Shown here: piece after piece, positions 921 through 54,438 of the stretch
How the letters are laid out: every line of letters starts with the position of its first letter
Numbering within the stretch: position 1 is the stretch's first letter
Assembly (NCBI RefSeq): GCF_988243305.1
Contig: NZ_OZ547136.1
DNA length: 64,000 nucleotides
Strand: one strand, 5' to 3'
Program-made: the position numbers and the translations under genes
Notes under the pieces: model-generated
Told to the model about the DNA's origin: nothing
What the model saw: only the letters and a program-made list of their open reading frames with translations
Database searches by the model: none

Positions 921-2099
921 ATGACGTTATTAGGCACTGCGCTGCGTCCGGCAGCAACTCGCGTGATGTTATTAGGCTCCGGTGAACTGGGTAAAGAAGT
1001 GGCAATCGAGTGTCAGCGTCTCGGCGTAGAAGTGATTGCCGTTGATCGCTATGCCGACGCACCAGCCATGCATGTCGCGCATCGCTCCCATGTCATTAAT
1101 ATGCTTGATGGTGATGCATTACGCCGTGTGGTTGAACTGGAAAAACCACATTATATCGTGCCGGAGATCGAAGCTATTGCCACCGATATGCTGATCCAAC
1201 TTGAAGAGGAAGGACTGAATGTTGTCCCCTGCGCGCGCGCAACGAAATTAACGATGAATCGCGAGGGTATCCGTCGCCTGGCGGCAGAAGAGCTGCAGCT
1301 GCCCACTTCCACTTATCGTTTTGCCGATAACGAAAACCTTTTCCGCAAGGCGGTTGCTGACATCGGCTATCCCTGCATTGTTAAACCGGTGATGAGTTCC
1401 TCCGGCAAGGGGCAGACGTTTATTCGTTCTGCAGAGCAACTTGCTCATGCATGGGAGTACGCTCAGCAAGGCGGTCGCGCCGGAGCGGGCCGCGTAATTG
1501 TTGAAGGCGTCGTTAAGTTTGACTTCGAAATTACCCTGCTAACCGTCAGCGCGGTGGATGGCGTCCATTTCTGTGCACCAGTAGGTCATCGCCAGGAAGA
1601 TGGCGACTACCGTGAATCCTGGCAACCACAGCAAATGAGCCAGCTTGCCCTTGAACGTGCGCAAGAGATTGCCCGTAAAGTGGTGCTGGCACTGGGCGGT
1701 TATGGTCTGTTTGGTGTCGAGCTGTTTGTCTGTGGTGATGAGGTGATTTTCAGTGAGGTCTCCCCTCGTCCACATGATACCGGGATGGTGACGTTAATTT
1801 CTCAGGATCTCTCAGAGTTTGCCCTGCATGTGCGAGCCTTTCTCGGACTTCCGGTTGGCGGGATCCGTCAGTATGGTCCTGCAGCTTCTGCCGTTATCCT
1901 GCCACAACTGACCAGTGAGAATGTCACGTTTGATAATGTGCAGAATGCCGTAGGCGCAGGTTTGCAGATTCGTTTATTTGGTAAGCCGGAAATTGATGGC
2001 AGCCGTCGTCTGGGGGTGGCACTGGCTACTGCAGAGAGTGTTGATGAAGCGATTGATCGCGCAAAGCACGCCGCAGCACAGATAAAAGTACAAGCTTAA
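921..2099 (+). CDS. purT: Phosphoribosylglycinamide formyltransferase 2 (formate-dependent GAR transformylase)
   Basis: 392-aa ORF, ATP-grasp fold, matches remembered PurT. Confidence 0.95.
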
Positions 2100-2119
2100 C
2101 CCCGGCGAAAAACGCTACC

Positions 2120-2148
2120 AAAATGCCCGATCGAGGATCGGGCATTTT
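2120..2148. terminator. Bidirectional intrinsic terminator between purT and eda
   Basis: Perfect hairpin aaaatgcccgatc/gatcgggcatttt flanked by A and T runs, between convergent genes. Confidence 0.6.
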
Positions 2149-2153
2149 GACTT

Positions 2154-2795
2154 TTACAGCTTAGCGCCTTCTACAGCTTCACGCGCCAGCTTAGTAATGC
2201 GGTCGTAATCGCCCGCTTCCAGCGCATCTGCCGGAACCAGCCAGGAGCCACCGATGCACAGCACGCTTTTCAGCGCCAGGTAGTCACGGTAGTTAGCCGG
2301 AGAAATACCACCCGTCGGGCAGAAACGGACCTGGGAGAACGGACCCGCGATTGCCTGCAGGGCTTTCACGCCGCCGTTAGCTTCAGCCGGGAAGAATTTG
2401 AACTCTTTCAAACCGTAGTCCATACCCAGCATCAGTTCGGAAACAGTGCTGATCCCCGGAATCAGAGGAATAGTCCCTTCGGTAGCAGCCTTCAGCAGCG
2501 GCTCGGTCAGACCCGGGCTAATTGCGAACTGTGCACCCGCTTCGGTGACTTCTGCCAGCTGCTGTGGATTCAGCACCGTACCGGCACCCACAATCGCTTC
2601 AGGCACTTCTTTGGCGATAGCACGGATAGCGTCAACTGCACACTCGGTACGCAGAGTCACTTCCAGAACGCGCACCCCACCAGCAACCAACGCTTTTGCC
2701 ATCGGCACCGCGTGTTCCAGTTTTTTTACCACGATAACCGGTACAACCGGGCCGGTGGTCAGGATTGATTCTGCACTTGTTTTCCAGTTTTTCAT
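2154..2795 (-). CDS. eda: KDPG / KHG aldolase
   Basis: 213-aa ORF matching remembered Eda; Entner-Doudoroff operon context. Confidence 0.95.
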
Positions 2796-2831
2796 CAGAG
2801 TTTTCTCTCGCCTGATTACAAATTTGTCGTC

Positions 2832-4643
2832 TTAAAAAGTGATACAGGTTGCGCCCTGTTCGGCACCGGACAGTTTTTCACGCAAGGCGCTGAATAATTC
2901 ACGTCCTGTTCCCACGCGTGACGCGCTCAGGTCAGGAATGTGCGGTTCGCGAGCAGCCAGTTCCGCTTCGTCTACCAGCAGCGTCAGTTCGCCTGTCTGT
3001 CCATTCACACGAATGATGTCCCCGTCGCGCACTTTTGCCAGCAGCCCGCCATCGTAGGCTTCTGGTGTTACGTGGATAGCTGACGGCACTTTACCTGAAG
3101 CGCCGGAGAGTCGTCCATCGGTAACTAACGCAATTTTGAAACACCGGTCCAATAATACACCAAGTGGCGGCATGAGTTTATGTAATTCTGGCATTCCGTT
3201 CGCTTTTGGCCCCTGATGACGGACAACAATGACACAATCGCGGTCCAGCAAACCCGCTTCAAAGGCCGGCATAACGTCATGCTGGCTTTCAAAAACAACC
3301 GCAGGCGCTTCAATCACCTGGTTCTCTACCGGCACGGCAGAGGTTTTCATCACCGCTCGGCCCAGGTTACCGCTTAACACTTTTGTCCCACCATGATGAG
3401 AGAAAGGTTGTTCGAAGGAAGCGATCACATTGTTGTCGAGTGATTTTTCTGCCCCTTCCCGCCAGTCCAGTTCACCATTATTCAGCCATGGTTCAAGGGT
3501 ATAACGAGACAGACCAAAGCCTGCCACCGTATTGACATCTTCATGCAGCAGGCCTGCTTTGAGCAGTTCACGCACCAGAACCGGTACGCCACCTGCCGCC
3601 TGGAAGTGGTTAATATCGGCCGGACCGTTCGGGTAGAGACGTGCCATCAGCGGTACAACATCAGAAAGGTCAGAAAAGTCATCCCAGTTAATCTGAATAC
3701 CGGCCGCGCGTGCCATCGCCACCAGGTGCATGGTGTGGTTAGTGGAACCACCGGTCGCCAGCAGTGCAACGATACCGTTCACCACCACTTTCTCATCGAT
3801 CATCTTACCGATCGGCATCCATTCATTACCATTACCGGTCATGCGTGTAACCTGGCGCGCAGCGGCTGCGGTCAAAGCATCGCGCAGCGGAGAATCCGGA
3901 TGAACAAAAGAAGAGCCTGGCAACTGCATCCCCATAAACTCCACCACCATCTGGTTGGTGTTGGCAGTACCGTAGAAAGTACATGTTCCCGGCGCATGAT
4001 AAGACGCGGCTTCTGACTCCAGTAATGCCATGCGGTCCACTTTACCTTCGGCATAAAGCTGGCGAATACGCACTTTTTCTTTATTTGGCAAACCGCTTGC
4101 CATCGGTCCAGACGGCACAAACACCGCAGGCAAATGCCCAAACGACAGGGCTGCCATCGTCAGACCCGGGACAATCTTGTCGCACACACCGAGGAACAGA
4201 GCACCATCAAACATGTTATGGGACAGCCCCACCGCCGCAGACATCGCAATCACTTCGCGGCTTAACAGCGACAATTCCATTCCATCCTGCCCCTGGGTGA
4301 CACCATCACACATCGCCGGAACACCGCCTGCAACCTGACCAACCGCATTTGCTTCATGCAGGGCTTTACGAATGATTTCTGGATAGTGTTCATAAGGCTG
4401 GTGAGCGGAGAGCATGTCGTTATAGGAGGTGATGATGGCGATATTGTTACGCAACATGCTTTTCAATGAGGCTTTGTCTTCTGGCTGGCAGGCAGCGAAA
4501 CCGTGTGCCAGGTTACCGCATGCCAACTGCGAACGATGAACGGTCGAAGTTTTCGCTTGTTCTATCCGGGCGAGATAAGCAGAGCGAGTCTCGCGCGAAC
4601 GTTCAATGATTCGATTTGTTACGCGTAACAATTGTGGGTTCAT
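2832..4643 (-). CDS. edd: Phosphogluconate dehydratase
   Basis: 603-aa ILVD/EDD-family ORF upstream of eda. Confidence 0.95.
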
Positions 4644-48576: not shown

Positions 48577-49044
48577 TTATTTCAGGCACTGAGTACGGAT
48601 ATATTCCTGCGCCCCTTCCAGTTGCTTGTGCATCGTCATCAGCCGCTCTCTGAGGGTGAAATAATCCCGTTCAGCGGTGTCTGCCAGTCGGGGGCCGGTT
48701 GCATTATCCACGCGGGCGGTGCCGGTGGCTTCACGCACGGGACCTGGACAGGTGGCGTTGATACGCAGGCGCTTACGACCAGCGGCAACGTCAGCGCGAA
48801 GAGTTTCATTTTCAGCTCTCGCATCGGCTAATTCCCTCGAGTATTTTGCATCGAGCGCAGCAACATCACGCTGACGCATCTGCATGTCAGTAATTGCCGC
48901 GTTCGCCAGCTTCAGTTCTCTGACATTTTTGTCGCGCTGGGCTTTGTAGGTAATGGCGTTATCACGGTAATGATTCAGCCCCAGACTAAGCGCACCACAG
49001 GCCACCAGCATGACAATAATCACCACACACAGAACACGGTTCAT
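48577..49044 (-). CDS. Rz: Spanin inner-membrane subunit Rz
   Basis: ORF 48577..49128 trimmed to the [38 protein letters not shown] start. Confidence 0.9.
48639..48824 (-). CDS. Rz1: Spanin outer-membrane lipoprotein Rz1, embedded in Rz in the +1 frame
   Basis: 61-aa ORF with lipobox (VVSAC) and Pro-rich tail ([30 protein letters not shown]). Confidence 0.85.
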
Positions 49045-49262
49045 ATCACCACCAACGGATTGCCCAGACCAGAACAGCAATGGCCACAATACGAATGGCA
49101 AATGCCATTGCCCGAATAAGTTCAGCACTCATCTTTTTAAAGTTCACGATTTCAGCGCAATGACCAGTTTTGCCAGCCCATATAGCATCGGAGACACAGC
49201 AATACCAACAGCCACCCACTTAATAGCAAAAGCCAGCGCTCTGCTGATGTCATCAGTCACTG

Positions 49263-49394
49263 TCACCCCAGCAGCCCCGACGAAGACAACATCACCCAGG
49301 CGAGGGACAGAAAAAGAGCAACCAGCATTAGTGAAAATGAAATACCGACAATCACACACAGGACCTTTGCCGGCGTTATGAGTTTGTCTGACAT
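49263..49394 (-). CDS. Small hydrophobic peptide (43 aa), hypothetical
   Basis: Hand-translated: MSDKLITPAKVLCVIVGISFSLMLVALFLSLAWVMLSSSGLLG; AGGGG Shine-Dalgarno 6 nt upstream. Overlaps the longer alternative-frame ORF 49144..49416. Confidence 0.3.
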   Translation of the reverse strand: MSDKLITPAKVLCVIVGISFSLMLVALFLSLAWVMLSSSGLLG

Positions 49395-49563
49395 AGCTAC
49401 CCCTTAATTGCCACAATTAACTGGGATACTACCCATAAAAAAGGGATGCTCCAGACCAGCAAAAATTTCCAGTTTGGTAATTGACTAATCATGAGTCGCA
49501 ACTCCCTAATCAGTTTGCTAAAATCAATCAAGGCAGCCTCCCATAGCTTACTGCCATAAAAAC

Positions 49564-49600
49564 AAAACCCCGCTTGCTGCCAACAAACGGGGTTTTTACT
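49564..49600. terminator. Hairpin terminator downstream of R
   Basis: aaaaccccg...cggggttttt with T runs on both strands. Confidence 0.55.
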
Positions 49601-49686
49601 TTTATTCACTTACGTTTCGCCAGTTCGCAGGATTTCGTGTTATCCGCCCGCGTGGCCATGCCTTATTTTTCAGCAAAATATTCTGC

Positions 49687-50220
49687 TTATCTGTCGATAC
49701 CCCAGCACGCCAGCGCGCTCTCCTGGTCACGACGGGATACCTGACCGTAGCAGTTGTTTGAACGAATACGGCAGTCTCTGCCACCGTCCTTAATCCACCA
49801 GCGAATCGCCTCACACGCTCCCCTGCGGTCACCAGCATTCAGCCGCTTATAAAACGTCGACGGGAAACACTTACCGGGGCCAATGTTATAGGGACAGAAT
49901 GACGCTATACCCGCTTTCTGTGGTTCGGTCAGTGGAACTTTAATATTGCGCTCCACCCATGCCAGCGCCTTATCCCGTTCAATGGCATTAACCTGGTCGC
50001 ATTTTTCCTTCGACAGTTTCATGCCCGGAATAACAGGTTTACCATCCACCATTGTGGCACCGCGGCAGATGGTCCAGATACCCGCACCATCACGGTATGC
50101 CGTTGTGTGGTTACCTTCTTTTTCATCCAGAAACTGGTCGAGAATATCAGGCGCAGGCGCACCGATGGCAATCAACGCCAGAACGGCAGCCGACAGGCCA
50201 TATTTGATTTTGGTGTTCAT
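49687..50220 (-). CDS. R: Endolysin (lysozyme family) with N-terminal signal-anchor-release-like segment
   Basis: 177-aa ORF; N-terminal weakly hydrophobic Gly/Ala-rich segment (LSAAVLALIAIGAPA). Confidence 0.9.
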   Translation of the reverse strand: MNTKIKYGLSAAVLALIAIGAPAPDILDQFLDEKEGNHTTAYRDGAGIWTICRGATMVDGKPVIPGMKLSKEKCDQVNAIERDKALAWVERNIKVPLTEPQKAGIASFCPYNIGPGKCFPSTFYKRLNAGDRRGACEAIRWWIKDGGRDCRIRSNNCYGQVSRRDQESALACWGIDR

Positions 50221-50276
50221 GGATATTTATCAGGATTTATCGGTTCCGAATCCCTGGATATGTTAAATCTTCAGCC

Positions 50277-50303
50277 CGCCAGCGGTAGGACACTGGCGTT
50301 TTT
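50277..50303 (+). terminator. Hairpin plus T run between the R start and the 104-aa ORF
   Basis: cgccagcggtaggacactggcg followed by ttttt on the plus strand; function unclear. Confidence 0.35.
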
Positions 50304-50348
50304 CCTGATGGCTGAAATATATCTGACAATTTCAGTAGAGGATTAACC

Positions 50349-50663
50349 ATGCATAACGATCAACATAATTATGATTTATGCCTGCAAGCCATAAATGAGC
50401 GGGTAAAATCAGAGTGCCTCTTACTCCTCCCACAAGAACACGATGCAGTAAAATCCATTCAGGCTGAGCCGTATGGACATCTCACACCTGTGACTCTCGG
50501 CATTATCGCCAGAGCATTAACACAGCCCATGCTTATGCGTATTAAGACCAATATAAATAACTGGTTGAATGAAGAATTAAGCTACCTTGATTGTGAGTGG
50601 GACAATCATTACGCAAAAACACAAAAAGAACGCATCTTCAGTCGATTATCCAGCAACAGATAA
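50349..50663 (+). CDS. Hypothetical protein (104 aa), antisense to the late operon
   Basis: ORF with GAGGA Shine-Dalgarno 7 nt upstream; AT-rich codon usage; no family recognised. Confidence 0.45.
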   Translation: MHNDQHNYDLCLQAINERVKSECLLLLPQEHDAVKSIQAEPYGHLTPVTLGIIARALTQPMLMRIKTNINNWLNEELSYLDCEWDNHYAKTQKERIFSRLSSNR

Positions 50664-50672
50664 CGAGCCACC

Positions 50673-51479
50673 TTATATACGCCCTTTCAGATAAGTCATC
50701 CCCGGCTGCATCCAGTCAACAGGTGCTTTCTTAAAGGGCGTATTATCAAAATCACGCAGAAGAGCCTCCAGCACAACTGCATCATTGTCAGCACCACTGG
50801 CCATCATTTCAATCTCAGCTGCTACCTGCAGATATCCCATGCAACGACCAATGCGCTTCATCAGCCCCTGCTTTTTATTGTTCTTCAGGTAATCAATGGC
50901 AAATTCAATGAGCGCCTCACTATGCTGGTGCGATGGCGGTGTTAATTTCCCATTTTCTGAGATGGTTATTTTCCCGCCATCTCCGTATACAACAAAGGAT
51001 GGCCGGTTACACTCCCATTCCTGATCTTTATCAGGTGCAGACGCAATAAAATAACGTTTATTTCCTTCCTCTCCGGCACTTTTAACCGTAATGGAGTACT
51101 CAGACTGCAGACAAGACGCCTCTTTTTCTGACCGCAGTGTTGACGGCGGCATCTTCAGAGAACCAGTAATTCTTCCCGGTAGCTTTCCTTTGTAGGTTAT
51201 CAACACATCCTGCGCCTCTAAAATTATGGGGCGCTTTTCCGGCGACAGCTCATCCCCTTCACATAACCCGGCAGCAACATCCAGGAAGACCTGTCTGATG
51301 CTCCTTCTGGCTGCTGCCTCATAAAACTCCAGCGCGGCACCTTCAACACGGTCCAGCGAGATGTCCAGGTCAAAAATTTCACCGTCAAAGCGTTTTTTGT
51401 CCCGTAACGCTAAAGTTACCGTAACTTTATTCTCAAAATTGCGGATCCCTTTCACAATCAGTTCATAGTTTTGAGTCAT
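50673..51479 (-). CDS. Hypothetical protein (268 aa) inserted between holin and endolysin
   Basis: Start is 4 nt after the S stop (GAGTAATTCAATG) with GGGGAGAG Shine-Dalgarno inside the end of S; soluble; no family recognised. Confidence 0.6.
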   Translation of the reverse strand: MTQNYELIVKGIRNFENKVTVTLALRDKKRFDGEIFDLDISLDRVEGAALEFYEAAARRSIRQVFLDVAAGLCEGDELSPEKRPIILEAQDVLITYKGKLPGRITGSLKMPPSTLRSEKEASCLQSEYSITVKSAGEEGNKRYFIASAPDKDQEWECNRPSFVVYGDGGKITISENGKLTPPSHQHSEALIEFAIDYLKNNKKQGLMKRIGRCMGYLQVAAEIEMMASGADNDAVVLEALLRDFDNTPFKKAPVDWMQPGMTYLKGRI

Positions 51480-51483
51480 TGAA

Positions 51484-51699
51484 TTACTCTCCCCGTGCAG
51501 CCTTACGACGGTCCTCTCTGATTTTGAAATACAGGTTAGTCAGATATGTCAGCAGCCCAAACAGCAGACTCCCCAGCACGCCTATTGCCGCCCACTGAGA
51601 CGGGGAAACCCTGTCCAGCAACTGCAGGAACCAGTAGCCCGTTCCCACCGCTGACGTGGTGTATGACACACCTGTTGTGATTTTTTCCATCTGGTACAT
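51484..51699 (-). CDS. S: Holin, phage 21 S-type (pinholin-like), with dual-start motif
   Basis: ORF 51484..51777 trimmed to [10 protein letters not shown]...; two TM segments; C-terminus [19 protein letters not shown]. Confidence 0.85.
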
Positions 51700-51849
51700 A
51701 CCCCGTCTCCCGTTATCCGGAAGCTGACAACAATAAAAAAAGCCACCAGTTAAGTACTGATGGCTCTGATAACTCATGCAGGCATCTCAGACGACCCACT
51801 GACACTACCGGTGAGTTTAACGATACCTTCCATTTGACTGGCTCACTTT

Positions 51850-53703
51850 TTATGATGATGCCGGTGCATTTATCTCCAGCACCAGACTTTCTATCTCAAC
51901 GCCATACGCTGCATTTTTGGTAATATCCGTCAGCGTCAGCGCATTCAGCCCCAGTGTCAGACTGTCTTTTATGACCTGGAATGCCGGGCCAGCCACTCCA
52001 TTCAGTTTCGGAGTAACCGTGGCACTGCCGGCGGTGAACACCAGTTCCAGCGTCTGCCAGTCATTACTGTAATTCCCGAACTCGCCCAACTTTGTGTTTC
52101 CTGCTTTCTTGTGATGCATCAGATTCAGTTTGCCGTCTGTGGTCTGGGTGAAGAACGACATCAGGAACGGGTTACCAGTCCCGGCCATCGCCACGACGTC
52201 AGGTAACGCTACATCGGTATACAGATAAATTCCCAGGCCGAACTGGTTGTTGGTCAGTGCGCCTGACAGTCGAAACTTACAGCTCAGTCTGCCACCCCGT
52301 GTCAGCAGGGAGACTGCGTCATCCACCGGATGCATCAGGGACCAGGTTTTATTGCTCTGCTTGGCGATCTTAAATACACCACCCGACAACTGAATTCCGC
52401 CGTCCTTAATGGTCCAGCCCTGCGCAGCAGCCTCTCCGGCTGTCGGCAACAGGGAGATTGTGCGTACGGATGCATCTTCAGACGGCCCCGATGGCGTGTT
52501 GCCGCCGGGCGAGGGTTTGATTTCCGGTGCCTTACCACTGATGAAAGCTGAGGTGCGCCCGGCTGCGTTCAGAATAGCGGTTGCCATACGATCCGGAATA
52601 ATGCTCCTGCGCGCCCATGAACTGAAATGTGTCGGGCGGTTTGATGATACCTGGTTTCCATTCGTTCTCGATGCCGCACCGTAATATCCTGATGCCGGAA
52701 TATCCGGATCTTCTGCCGGTGCGTTAGTGGCGGTATTGACGCCGTTACCGTCTGTCATGAAGGGCACAAAATAAACGCCCTCACTCTCCCTGTTTTTATA
52801 CCCGCCGTACACGGTGTCGTACTGGGTAGCGTATGTATTTTTCCAGTAATACGTCGTGTCACCACAAATCCACGGCACATTTACAGCACTACCACCATGA
52901 CACTGCGCGTTAAACACAGTGAGGTCAGCACGAAACTGCTTCAGCATGGCTGTAAACAGCGCAGGTTGCTGTGCGTAGGTGGCGGCGTTCATGTCAAACT
53001 CTCCCTGCATCCAGCACACCGCCAGCAACACATTTTTCGGGTTCTTCTGTAATGCAGCTTTAGTGCGCGCAATCAGGTCCTGATATAACGGTTTACCCAC
53101 ACCCCAGCGTGCCGAATCCTGGCTGGCCCCCGCGTCCGCACTGAATGTCCCCTCCGCGCCCTTGGTGAATGCCGAACCACCACGACAGCATGGTACCAGC
53201 AGGATCCCCGCGTTATTCGGGATATACGGGAGCAGTTTTTTGGCAATATGTAAGCCCTGGCCGACACAGCCGTACTGCCCTTTGCTCAGGTCTGCCTTCG
53301 GATGATTCAGCGTACTCATATCCTGCACATCATGCAGACAGTGGTCAGCCGGGATGATGTCGTTATACGTACAACTCTCTCCACCCGGAGTTACCGTGCT
53401 GCGGCGCGCCAGCTGTTTAATGCGCGGATCCGGAGCATCGTAAGAATCCGGTAACGGAAGCCCTTCACCGTAGGCCATGCCGTTGGACTGTCCGGCAAGC
53501 ACAACCACGTAGAACCAGTCCGGCTCAGATGAAGGGCCGACCTGTGGATCTCCTTCAATAGCCACCGCCTGCATCAGTGTGTACGGCGTAATGGCAACCG
53601 GTCCGCCATATGGCTGCCAGCCCTCTTTCAGTTTGTGTGTCAGCTTTTCCGCAAGGTCTGACGGCGACGCCGCCCTGACAACATCATAGTGTTTAAATGC
53701 CAT
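51850..53703 (-). CDS. Prophage sialate O-acetylesterase (NanS-p / YjhS-like)
   Basis: 617-aa ORF in the position this gene holds in Stx-type phages, between the tRNA cluster and S. Confidence 0.8.
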   Translation of the reverse strand: MAFKHYDVVRAASPSDLAEKLTHKLKEGWQPYGGPVAITPYTLMQAVAIEGDPQVGPSSEPDWFYVVVLAGQSNGMAYGEGLPLPDSYDAPDPRIKQLARRSTVTPGGESCTYNDIIPADHCLHDVQDMSTLNHPKADLSKGQYGCVGQGLHIAKKLLPYIPNNAGILLVPCCRGGSAFTKGAEGTFSADAGASQDSARWGVGKPLYQDLIARTKAALQKNPKNVLLAVCWMQGEFDMNAATYAQQPALFTAMLKQFRADLTVFNAQCHGGSAVNVPWICGDTTYYWKNTYATQYDTVYGGYKNRESEGVYFVPFMTDGNGVNTATNAPAEDPDIPASGYYGAASRTNGNQVSSNRPTHFSSWARRSIIPDRMATAILNAAGRTSAFISGKAPEIKPSPGGNTPSGPSEDASVRTISLLPTAGEAAAQGWTIKDGGIQLSGGVFKIAKQSNKTWSLMHPVDDAVSLLTRGGRLSCKFRLSGALTNNQFGLGIYLYTDVALPDVVAMAGTGNPFLMSFFTQTTDGKLNLMHHKKAGNTKLGEFGNYSNDWQTLELVFTAGSATVTPKLNGVAGPAFQVIKDSLTLGLNALTLTDITKNAAYGVEIESLVLEINAPASS

Positions 53704-54192
53704 GAATCCTCCCGGCCGGGATAATATTGTGAGTAAAATGAGGAGCGGGCTGAAGTCCGGAAGTTACAGGACAATGGCAGAAGAGAGACAATAGCCCGCA
53801 ATACGAAAAAGGCCGCGCTATTGCGCAGAGTGATTACTGTCAGATATTATTCGCCAGCTGAAATATTACTTCACGTTTTGTTGTTTATTCCTTGCCGCCC
53901 GCGTCTCCCTGCGCGGGATTTTTTTGTCCATAAGAAAGCCCCTCCGGAGAGGGGCTGGAGAGTGGCGCTATGTGCCATTGCATGGTGCCGGGTGCCTCCC
54001 GGTGAATTCAGTACCAGCACCTGAATCCGCGATTATCCCATATACCTACTCGCTGATTGCCCCTCCGCACAGGGGGATTCACCATGCCAGTTTCTTTTAA
54101 CAAACTCCCCGCAAAACAGACAACTGTCAACCGTCTGAATTGTGAGACATTTAAAAAAAAGGCCCGCAAAAGCGAGCCAGGGAAAATAAGTG

Positions 54193-54269
54193 TGGCGCGT
54201 TGTACTGGATTCGAACCAGTGACCGATTGCTTAGAAGGCAATTGCTCTGTCCGGCTGAGCTAACAACGC
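54193..54269 (-). tRNA. argO: tRNA-Arg (anticodon UCU), argO-like
   Basis: Hand-folded cloverleaf; anticodon loop CTTCTAA; T-arm GGTTCGAATCC; 3' CCA encoded. Confidence 0.8.
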
Positions 54270-54282
54270 AGGGTACAGATAA

Positions 54283-54359
54283 TGGACCGCCATCGAGGAC
54301 TCGAACCCCGCGCAACCAGCTTCGAAGGCTGGCGCTCTATCCTGATGAGCTAATGGCGG
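54283..54359 (-). tRNA. argN: tRNA-Arg (anticodon UCG), argN-like
   Basis: Hand-folded; anticodon loop CTTCGAA; T-arm GGTTCGAGTCC; 3' CCA encoded. Confidence 0.75.
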
Positions 54360-54366
54360 TATGTGA

Positions 54367-54438
54367 TGGTGGCCCTTGCTGGATTTGAACCAGCGACCTG
54401 GCGATTATGAGTCGCTCTCACCACTGAGCTAAAGGGCC
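54367..54438 (-). tRNA. ileZ: tRNA with CAU anticodon (Ile2/Met type), ileZ-like
   Basis: Hand-folded; anticodon loop CTCATAA; T-arm GGTTCAAATCC; short D-loop; 3' CCA encoded. Confidence 0.7.

Follow-up and report, generated by a model that had tools for sequence, protein, structure and literature searches.

The stretch of DNA analysed here, 64,000 nucleotides of contig NZ_OZ547136.1 (assembly GCF_988243305.1) and hereafter called the window, contains the lysis cassette of a lambdoid prophage, and this work concerns the two genes that lie between its holin gene S and its endolysin gene R (positions 50221 to 51483). Coordinates are window positions and the whole cassette is read on the minus strand, on which the order is S, an open reading frame (ORF) encoding 268 amino acids (aa), an ORF of 104 aa on the opposite strand, and R. 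The 268-aa ORF (50673-51479, minus strand) starts with an ATG 4 nt past the S stop codon (TAA-ttca-ATG), and its Shine-Dalgarno sequence, GGGGAGAG, is located within the 3' end of S. The 104-aa ORF (50349-50663, plus strand) is preceded by GAGGA 6 nt before its ATG; its stop codon is separated by 9 nt from that of the 268-aa ORF, and 128 nt lie between the 104-aa ORF and the divergent R. The geometry described in a first-pass annotation of the same DNA, including the separate ribosome-binding site of the antisense ORF, is all present in the sequence. Being translationally coupled to the holin, the 268-aa gene belongs to the late lysis operon, and the late expression previously proposed for it is upheld to that extent.

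The first-pass annotation recognised neither protein, which no longer holds for the larger one. Its residues 1 to 100 match positions 1 to 88 of the 93-position Pfam model DUF1327 (PF07041; E 1.5e-40), and phrog_1085 is matched over the full length of the protein. Alignment with YdfR of Escherichia coli K-12 gave 81% identity over aa 1 to 74 and no similarity beyond. These matches identify the 268-aa gene as a long-form member of the YdfR (DUF1327) family, which we refer to as ydfR-long. The AlphaFold2 model contains two folded regions, aa 1 to 73 and aa 155 to 268, joined by disordered aa 74 to 151. On the minus strand, these correspond to a DUF1327 domain (aa 1-74; 51258-51479) of three strands and a long helix, with a predicted local distance difference test score (pLDDT) of 73 to 88; a linker (aa 75-153; 51021-51257) with pLDDT below 50 over aa 74 to 151; and a C-terminal domain of 115 aa, here termed D (aa 154-268; 50673-51020), comprising a beta-meander and four helices (pLDDT 66-91). 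D matches no Pfam family. Its relatives in Salmonella and elsewhere are 33 to 45% identical, and the invariant columns of a family alignment define the motif GRCMGYLQVAAEIE ... PPFK..P..W..PG..YLK. A catalytic cysteine within a GRCMG sequence was considered and rejected, as the residue is alanine in the Salmonella protein P0186. Neither DUF1327 nor D matched a solved structure in a Foldseek search of the PDB or in a PDB sequence-profile search; Foldseek returned nothing for the 268-aa model at E <=0.001, the best hits being short curved beta-sheet/NTF2-like fragments on the N-domain. NCBIfam likewise contained no match to the protein.

Homologues of 103, 176, 183, 211, 268, 287, 296 and 325 to 333 aa were recovered, and the family is assembled from modules: DUF1327 (in two alleles that are approximately 55% identical), then a linker, a coiled coil that may be missing, and the C-terminal D of about 115 aa. 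The window protein is without the coiled-coil segment of roughly 65 aa that is carried by the 296- and 333-aa forms. As the junction falls between two SEKE repeats that flank the coiled coil in the 333-aa form, we infer that the segment was lost by internal deletion. The 268-aa deletion form is widespread, with 584 members in its cluster (P0016). The modules also occur apart: proteins of 185 to 217 aa consist of the coiled coil and D without DUF1327, and they are followed, in one arrangement that is common, by a distinct DUF1327 gene of 75 aa. Because a 233-aa Salmonella protein possesses all three parts (DUF1327, coiled coil and D), the long architecture must be old, and the 103-aa YdfR of K-12 looks like a short or decayed derivative of it.

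For the 104-aa protein, the earlier failure of recognition stands in large part: the only family recovered was phrog_1853, whose function is unknown (E 8.4e-50, with aa 1-103 aligned to positions 57-158 of the 159 in its profile). The extra N-terminal positions of this profile probably stem from over-extended gene calls, for example P0007. Nothing was found in Pfam, NCBIfam or PADLOC, the sole Pfam signal (LRR19-TM, E 0.22) being noise. Searching AFDB50 retrieved only uncharacterised proteins from E. coli, Shigella and Salmonella, none of them annotated, and a sequence-profile search of the PDB gave no meaningful match. An exhaustive HMMER search of 1.8 billion representatives added few further relatives, of 105 to 107 aa and 28 to 48% identity; a 3579-aa protein from this search (P0201) was dropped as a repeat-inflated match to a trimeric autotransporter adhesin. 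Given the alignment obtained in this way, AlphaFold2 confidently predicted five helices with pLDDT 93 and a predicted template modelling score of 0.84. The maximal Kyte-Doolittle mean over 19 residues was 1.16 for this protein and 0.87 for the 268-aa protein; the description of the latter as soluble is therefore sustained, and neither protein contains a hydrophobic stretch of transmembrane grade. The product of the 104-aa gene is a small cytoplasmic protein made up entirely of helices.

One or both ORFs might nevertheless be non-functional, as remnants of recombination or as chance ORFs on the antisense strand. In the genomes of KE54 and O104:H4, the NCBI Prokaryotic Genome Annotation Pipeline (PGAP) labels the larger gene 'YdfR family protein, incomplete, missing C-terminus', the D region is unannotated in many genomes, and the linker bears an apparent internal deletion. 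However, the 268-aa ORF is intact in the genomes so labelled, and the deletion form is itself widespread, with its 584 members in P0016. D is conserved from E. coli to Salmonella with a ratio of nonsynonymous to synonymous substitution (dN/dS) of 0.25 to 0.36, the range for DUF1327 being 0.14 to 0.32, and its variable sites are distributed over the three codon positions as 48/36/79, an excess at the third. The 104-aa ORF likewise stays open, with 103 to 105 codons, in alleles whose identity falls to 37%; five diverged alleles from E. coli have 103 to 104 codons, with dN/dS of 0.24 to 0.37 at dS <=0.6 and variable sites of 30/22/45 by codon position. Confident folded models were moreover obtained for both proteins. 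Non-function is already contradicted by the selection analysis and is in our judgement highly improbable; by these signatures of purifying selection, both ORFs are genuine genes.

The two genes had been described as undescribed cargo inserted between an S and an R that are normally adjacent, a description that does not survive comparison with other genomes. E. coli prophages that have this cassette commonly carry a gene of the YdfR family at this place, and it is this family that usually fills the S-R gap of the K-12 Qin prophage and of many Shiga toxin (Stx) and lambdoid phages. Some part of the 1263-bp S-R interval was found in 4367 of the 5426 complete E. coli genomes to which all E. coli counts given here refer. 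The S-R region was matched by 373 phage records; DUF1327 is present in 101 phage records (H-19B, mEp460 and many Stx1a and Stx2c phages among them) and went unmatched in 272 of the 373. Stx2 phage 86 (orf5/orf6) and a prophage of O104:H4 have genes on deposit that are 100% identical to these, and both genes fall into PHROG families. They are catalogued prophage content and not new cargo, the 268-aa family being found in most E. coli genomes. Specifically, the identity among the window, phage 86 and the O104:H4 prophage is 100% over a block that begins inside R and takes in the small gene, D and the linker, and it is 100% again in S; only about 230 bp of DUF1327 (51258-51479) differ, with 62 to 70% identity to the loci L001 and L030. 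At the level of sequence, an allele the size of a domain has been cleanly exchanged within a single gene.

The evidence that the two genes belong together comes from their arrangement in other loci. In each of the loci that were examined (the window, L001, L006, L016-L021, L022-L026 and L031), the small gene and a D-domain gene converge, the 3' ends of the two lying 9 to 19 nt apart or overlapping by up to 33 nt. No example of a small gene without a D-domain neighbour was encountered among these loci, the nearest being L027, in which a degenerate remnant of 65 aa is all that is left of D. The pairing is kept at 38 to 48% identity, both proteins having diverged in parallel. It is kept in remote loci (L022, L023 and L031), where the small protein is 38 to 45% and D 39 to 42% identical and the pair stands upstream of the holin, and it extends to unclassified metagenomic contigs. 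The surroundings of the pair vary. In Salmonella enterica (L031) the order is Q, HicBA, a 233-aa YdfR-long, an antisense 105-aa gene, holin and lysozyme; L022 has the same layout, so that the pair lies between Q and the holin rather than between S and R, and in L023 and L024 it adjoins a class III holin. The loci examined thus display the fixed tail-to-tail pairing across lineages and flanks that is expected of a conserved two-gene module, and the question raised earlier, whether the pair travels as a unit, is answered by its joint presence in them: the two genes do travel together. In the Salmonella-type prophages, a HicA/HicB toxin-antitoxin pair is situated between Q and the YdfR-long pair (5195-5833 in L022; 2118-2779 in L031), which makes the start of the late operon a further slot for cargo.

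An imperfect inverted repeat, CGCCAGCG-N6-CACTGGCG (50277-50298), followed by TTTTT to position 50303, has the R leader on one side and the AT-rich 5' region of the 104-aa gene on the other. This is the hairpin that the first-pass annotation had placed upstream of the gene; it exists, and its folding is thermodynamically unremarkable (-13 kcal/mol and z -0.4 on the plus strand; -17 kcal/mol and z -2.35 on the minus strand). In 10 further loci, remote modules included, the stem is conserved and the loop variable. The repeat stands beside every intact module examined and is absent only in L027, the locus with the degenerate D remnant. A proven RNA element it is not: there were no compensatory pairs, the covariation term was unfavourable, and wobble changes favoured different strands according to locus. 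The repeat could be an RNA element, a recombination boundary or a protein site.

The same repeat is also found upstream of antisense genes unrelated to the 104-aa family, and the place beside the R leader behaves as a slot for such genes. In a common alternative layout (L007), the order is S, a 213-aa protein of coiled coil and D, a 75-aa DUF1327 protein, an antisense gene of 95 aa (3402-3689, minus strand) that belongs to phrog_10490, and R. The 95-aa protein gave a weak, partial match to the PADLOC candidate PDC-S51 (E 2.5e-5, covering 59 aa of a 376-position profile). In E. coli O26:H11 strain 11368 (L004), the repeat precedes a longer antisense ORF. Here, approximately 1 kb (2001-3054) is unannotated between R and a DUF1327 'pseudogene'. 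The antisense ORF, of about 210 to 233 aa, matched nothing in Pfam, PHROG or PADLOC, and it shares sequence with the 3' part of a YdfR-like ORF of 263 aa; in this overlap, one or the other is probably spurious. The idea of a polymorphic effector with a cognate antisense partner was considered and rejected, since the O26 example is unclean owing to these overlapping ORFs and the antisense proteins found in place of the 104-aa protein show no relationship to its family.

The occupancy of this slot bears directly on the main rival to a functional relationship within the pair, namely that the 104-aa gene is an independent moron: a lysogen-expressed exclusion, defence or host-fitness gene that occupies a permissive antisense slot, is functionally unrelated to YdfR and has a constant neighbour by linkage only. 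The gene has a moron-like look, because it is AT-rich (41% G+C, and 34% in the 50 nt before it, compared with 53% in S and R), possesses its own Shine-Dalgarno sequence and is oriented against the late operon. That unrelated genes follow the same conserved hairpin in L007 and in O26 11368 accords with such a reading, as does the finding that most D-domain genes have no small gene beside them. Conversely, the pair persists at about 40% identity, in Salmonella, in metagenomic contigs and after relocation within the late operon, and the small gene was never found without a D-domain neighbour, L027 with its 65-aa remnant coming closest. Lasting pairing in mosaic phage genomes usually reflects functional coupling. 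The 104-aa protein, furthermore, had zero matches in PADLOC. On balance we regard the independent moron as possible rather than probable, and as nearly as likely as the reading of the pair put forward below.

The location of both genes within the lysis cassette raises a different explanation, that YdfR-long and possibly the small protein are lysis-timing accessories which regulate the pinholin or the signal-anchor-release (SAR) endolysin so as to delay or sharpen lysis, in the manner of antiholins and other lysis regulators. The translational coupling of ydfR-long to S would fit such a role, and in K-12 a 4-nt overlap also couples ydfR to the gene for the lysozyme. An envelope-integrity screen (Paradis-Bleau et al. 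2014, which is ref. 79 of PMC13232886) additionally flagged a ydfR mutant of K-12. Several observations nonetheless oppose this explanation. Neither protein contains a membrane segment or a signal sequence, and such regulators as are known for holins and SAR endolysins work within or at the membrane. Salmonella and related loci have the two genes upstream of an overlapping holin-lysozyme pair. The absence of a DUF1327 match from 272 of 373 phage records with the S-R region also counts against it, as does the lack of a growth effect when K-12 YdfR is overproduced. Taken together, a role in lysis timing appears improbable.

A different function for YdfR-long is suggested by work on the short K-12 protein, in which aa 1 to 72 suffice for a two-hybrid signal with RNase E's N-terminal half; Rne1-598 co-purifies with Strep-YdfR, and RNA co-purifies too (PMC13232886). 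We put forward, as a tentative reading that is possible rather than probable, that YdfR-long is an RNase E-docking late protein whose small partner is expressed outside the late operon and acts on or with D. By homology to aa 1 to 72 of K-12 YdfR, the N-domain would probably dock on host RNase E at its catalytic half, and may also contact RNA. Docking would bring D, as the working end, to the RNA-decay machinery in late lytic growth, where YdfR-long would be expected to tune RNA stability as a dispensable accessory instead of disrupting the envelope. Expression of the partner outside the late operon is proposed because of its antisense orientation, its own GAGGA and its low G+C content relative to S and R. 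Production of the 104-aa protein would probably not rely on the late promoter and would take place in the lysogen or in early infection, and Q-antiterminated late transcription, passing antisense through its gene, could silence it. It would probably act on or together with D, as a regulator or neutraliser; the direction and the target of this action are guesses. More specifically, YdfR-long and the 104-aa protein might constitute an unrecognised two-component module of enterobacterial lambdoid prophages, in which the lysogen-made small protein restrains the activity until late transcription silences the small gene. We consider this fuller version doubtful; were it true, the exchange of DUF1327 alleles alone would reflect selection at the interface with the host target.

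Several points weigh against the proposal of an RNase E-docking protein with a partner. The dependence between the genes is one-directional, in that D does not need the small partner: D is found in 776 of 5426 E. coli genomes (14%) and the small gene in only 94; in phage records, D is present in 5 and the small gene in 4. In L010 and L013, R directly follows a 296- or 333-aa YdfR and there is no small gene. Part of the co-occurrence could be explained by physical linkage alone. The evidence for RNase E binding, by two-hybrid and co-purification, concerns only the short form of K-12, whose overproduction changed few transcripts and did not slow growth (PMC13232886). No sequence or structural relative of D or of the 104-aa protein provides a biochemical activity. 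A consensus scan detected no promoter for the 104-aa gene, weak -10-like hexamers being visible by eye, and no expression data on the genes were located.

A limited literature search found no description of the D domain, the long architecture or the conserved antisense partner, and nothing under the accession numbers or locus tags of these genes; DUF1327 was mentioned in one paper, only in passing. PGAP marks the intact 268-aa ORF as an incomplete pseudogene (5924-6259 in L003; 7924-8259 in L030), and in many complete genomes the D coding region carries no feature at all (hits H105-H134). The truncated-pseudogene label of ydfR-long is an annotation artefact, and in combination with an unannotated D it means that a domain conserved in 14% of complete E. 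coli genomes is easily missed. The long form and its antisense partner further suggest that K-12 YdfR, which has been studied as an RNase E ligand, is a shortened protein, and that experiments confined to K-12 may miss the function. The presence of the pair in Stx-converting phages and in O104:H4 offers a tractable system for a direct test of whether RNase E is manipulated by temperate phages in the late phase of infection.

The flanking lysis genes are of familiar types. S (51484-51699, minus strand) encodes a class II (S21-like) holin of 71 aa that matches phrog_9876 (E 4.6e-40) and phrog_20, and the holins of homologous loci carry PF04971 (Phage_holin_2_1). Its ORF ends with the TAA at 51484 and, read mechanically, reaches 51777 (97 aa); on the basis of the PHROG holin matches and the MYQM dual-start motif, the true start is likely the one at 51699. 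A terminator-like hairpin with a T run on the late-operon strand (51739-51767, minus) lies just upstream of that start and inside the over-extended 97-aa ORF. R (49687-50220, minus strand) encodes a lysozyme-family endolysin of 177 aa (phrog_7, E 1.5e-63); PF00959 is found on the lysozymes of homologous loci, and by inspection only, the R N-terminus appears hydrophobic and SAR-like. The R leader (50221-50276, minus strand) is common to about 2200 E. coli genomes, the first 44 to 79 nt of the S-R interval matching 2207 of them, and reading of the leader sequence (…AATCCTGATAAATATCC ATG) revealed no strong or obvious Shine-Dalgarno sequence. R starts 452 nt from the preceding sense gene, compared with the 4-nt overlap of ydfR and rrrQ in K-12 Qin. 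With the antisense 104-aa gene standing between ydfR-long and R, translational coupling to the endolysin is therefore broken.

Downstream of R, Rz (48577-49128, minus strand) contains an embedded Rz1 (48639-48824, minus strand). Small ORFs occupy the interval between R and Rz (49144-49609, minus strand), one of which encodes a hydrophobic protein of 43 aa (MSDKLITPAKVLCVIVGISFSLMLVALFLSLAWVMLSSSGLLG), and hypothetical genes of 43 aa are called in the same R-Rz interval of related prophages. A second terminator-like hairpin with a T run (49564-49596, minus strand) is strong, with 15 pairs, and is located about 90 nt past the R stop codon, before the small ORFs and Rz/Rz1. Upstream of S lies a gene for a NanS-p/SASA-type esterase of 617 aa (51850-53703; phrog_143, with a SASA annotation in homologous loci), preceded by the small RNA STnc100 (Rfam RF02076, 139 bits, E 1.2e-31) and three transfer RNA genes (53926-54116 and 54196-54438, minus strand). 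This position downstream of Q is the usual place for transfer RNA and small RNA cargo in Stx-type prophages; stx genes are not present here.

PADLOC-DB 2.0 contained no defence model matching either protein at E <=1, and the defence, exclusion or anti-defence roles raised in the first-pass annotation remain pure conjecture, unsupported by any test in this analysis. Likewise, neither protein matches a lysis-cassette family of characterised function: no transmembrane segment, signal sequence, lipobox or PHROG lysis family places either of them among holins, antiholins or spanins. The genes also differ from type II toxin-antitoxin systems in being convergent and not operonic, in giving no Pfam, PADLOC or PDB match, and in that D mostly occurs without a partner.

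The closest studied relative is K-12 YdfR (b1555) of the cryptic prophage Qin. Its gene stands between the class II holin gene essQ and the lysozyme gene rrrQ, on the same strand and with the same 4-nt post-holin junction; this co-oriented TAA-N4-ATG arrangement directly after a class II holin is found in the window, in K-12 essQ-ydfR and in L005, L010 and L013. The segment that the window protein has in common with K-12 YdfR is the one reported to bind the N-terminal half of RNase E (PMC13232886). The K-12 protein differs in being 103 aa long with a short unrelated tail, in having no linker, D domain or antisense partner, and in the overlap of its gene with the lysozyme start. The full layout of S, 268-aa gene, antisense 104-aa gene and R is reproduced in Stx2-converting phage 86 (orf5/orf6; AB255436 / NC_008464) and in a non-Stx prophage of E. 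coli O104:H4 2011C-3493. Both have the alternative DUF1327 allele, which is of the MKKKYEL type (55% amino-acid identity), and the annotation of their genes goes no further than hypothetical, YdfR family or pseudogene.

Morons of the lambda type, for example bor, lie in the late region on the opposite strand and are expressed from their own promoter in the lysogen. The 104-aa gene resembles them in being small, AT-rich and antisense within the late operon, with its own ribosome-binding site and in a slot that hosts several unrelated genes. It differs from the bor type in that no promoter or terminator was identified, in encoding a cytoplasmic protein and not a lipoprotein, and in keeping one specific neighbour across deep divergence. 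A further analogy is offered by the operons of pore-forming colicins, in which the genes for the colicin and for lysis have the immunity gene between them, on the opposite strand. The succession is comparable here: first a large gene whose C-terminal region is variable, next a small gene convergent with it, and after that a lysis gene. However, the 104-aa protein is soluble rather than membrane-embedded, many D genes have no partner, there is no homology, and no toxicity is known.

Finally, phage proteins that act on RNase E are familiar from virulent phages, in which the T7 gp0.7 kinase, phiKZ Dip and T4 Srd are early or middle products. YdfR has no relation that we could find to any solved structure. 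If DUF1327 binds as it does in K-12, YdfR would be another phage ligand of RNase E, and one directed at the catalytic N-terminal half of the enzyme.

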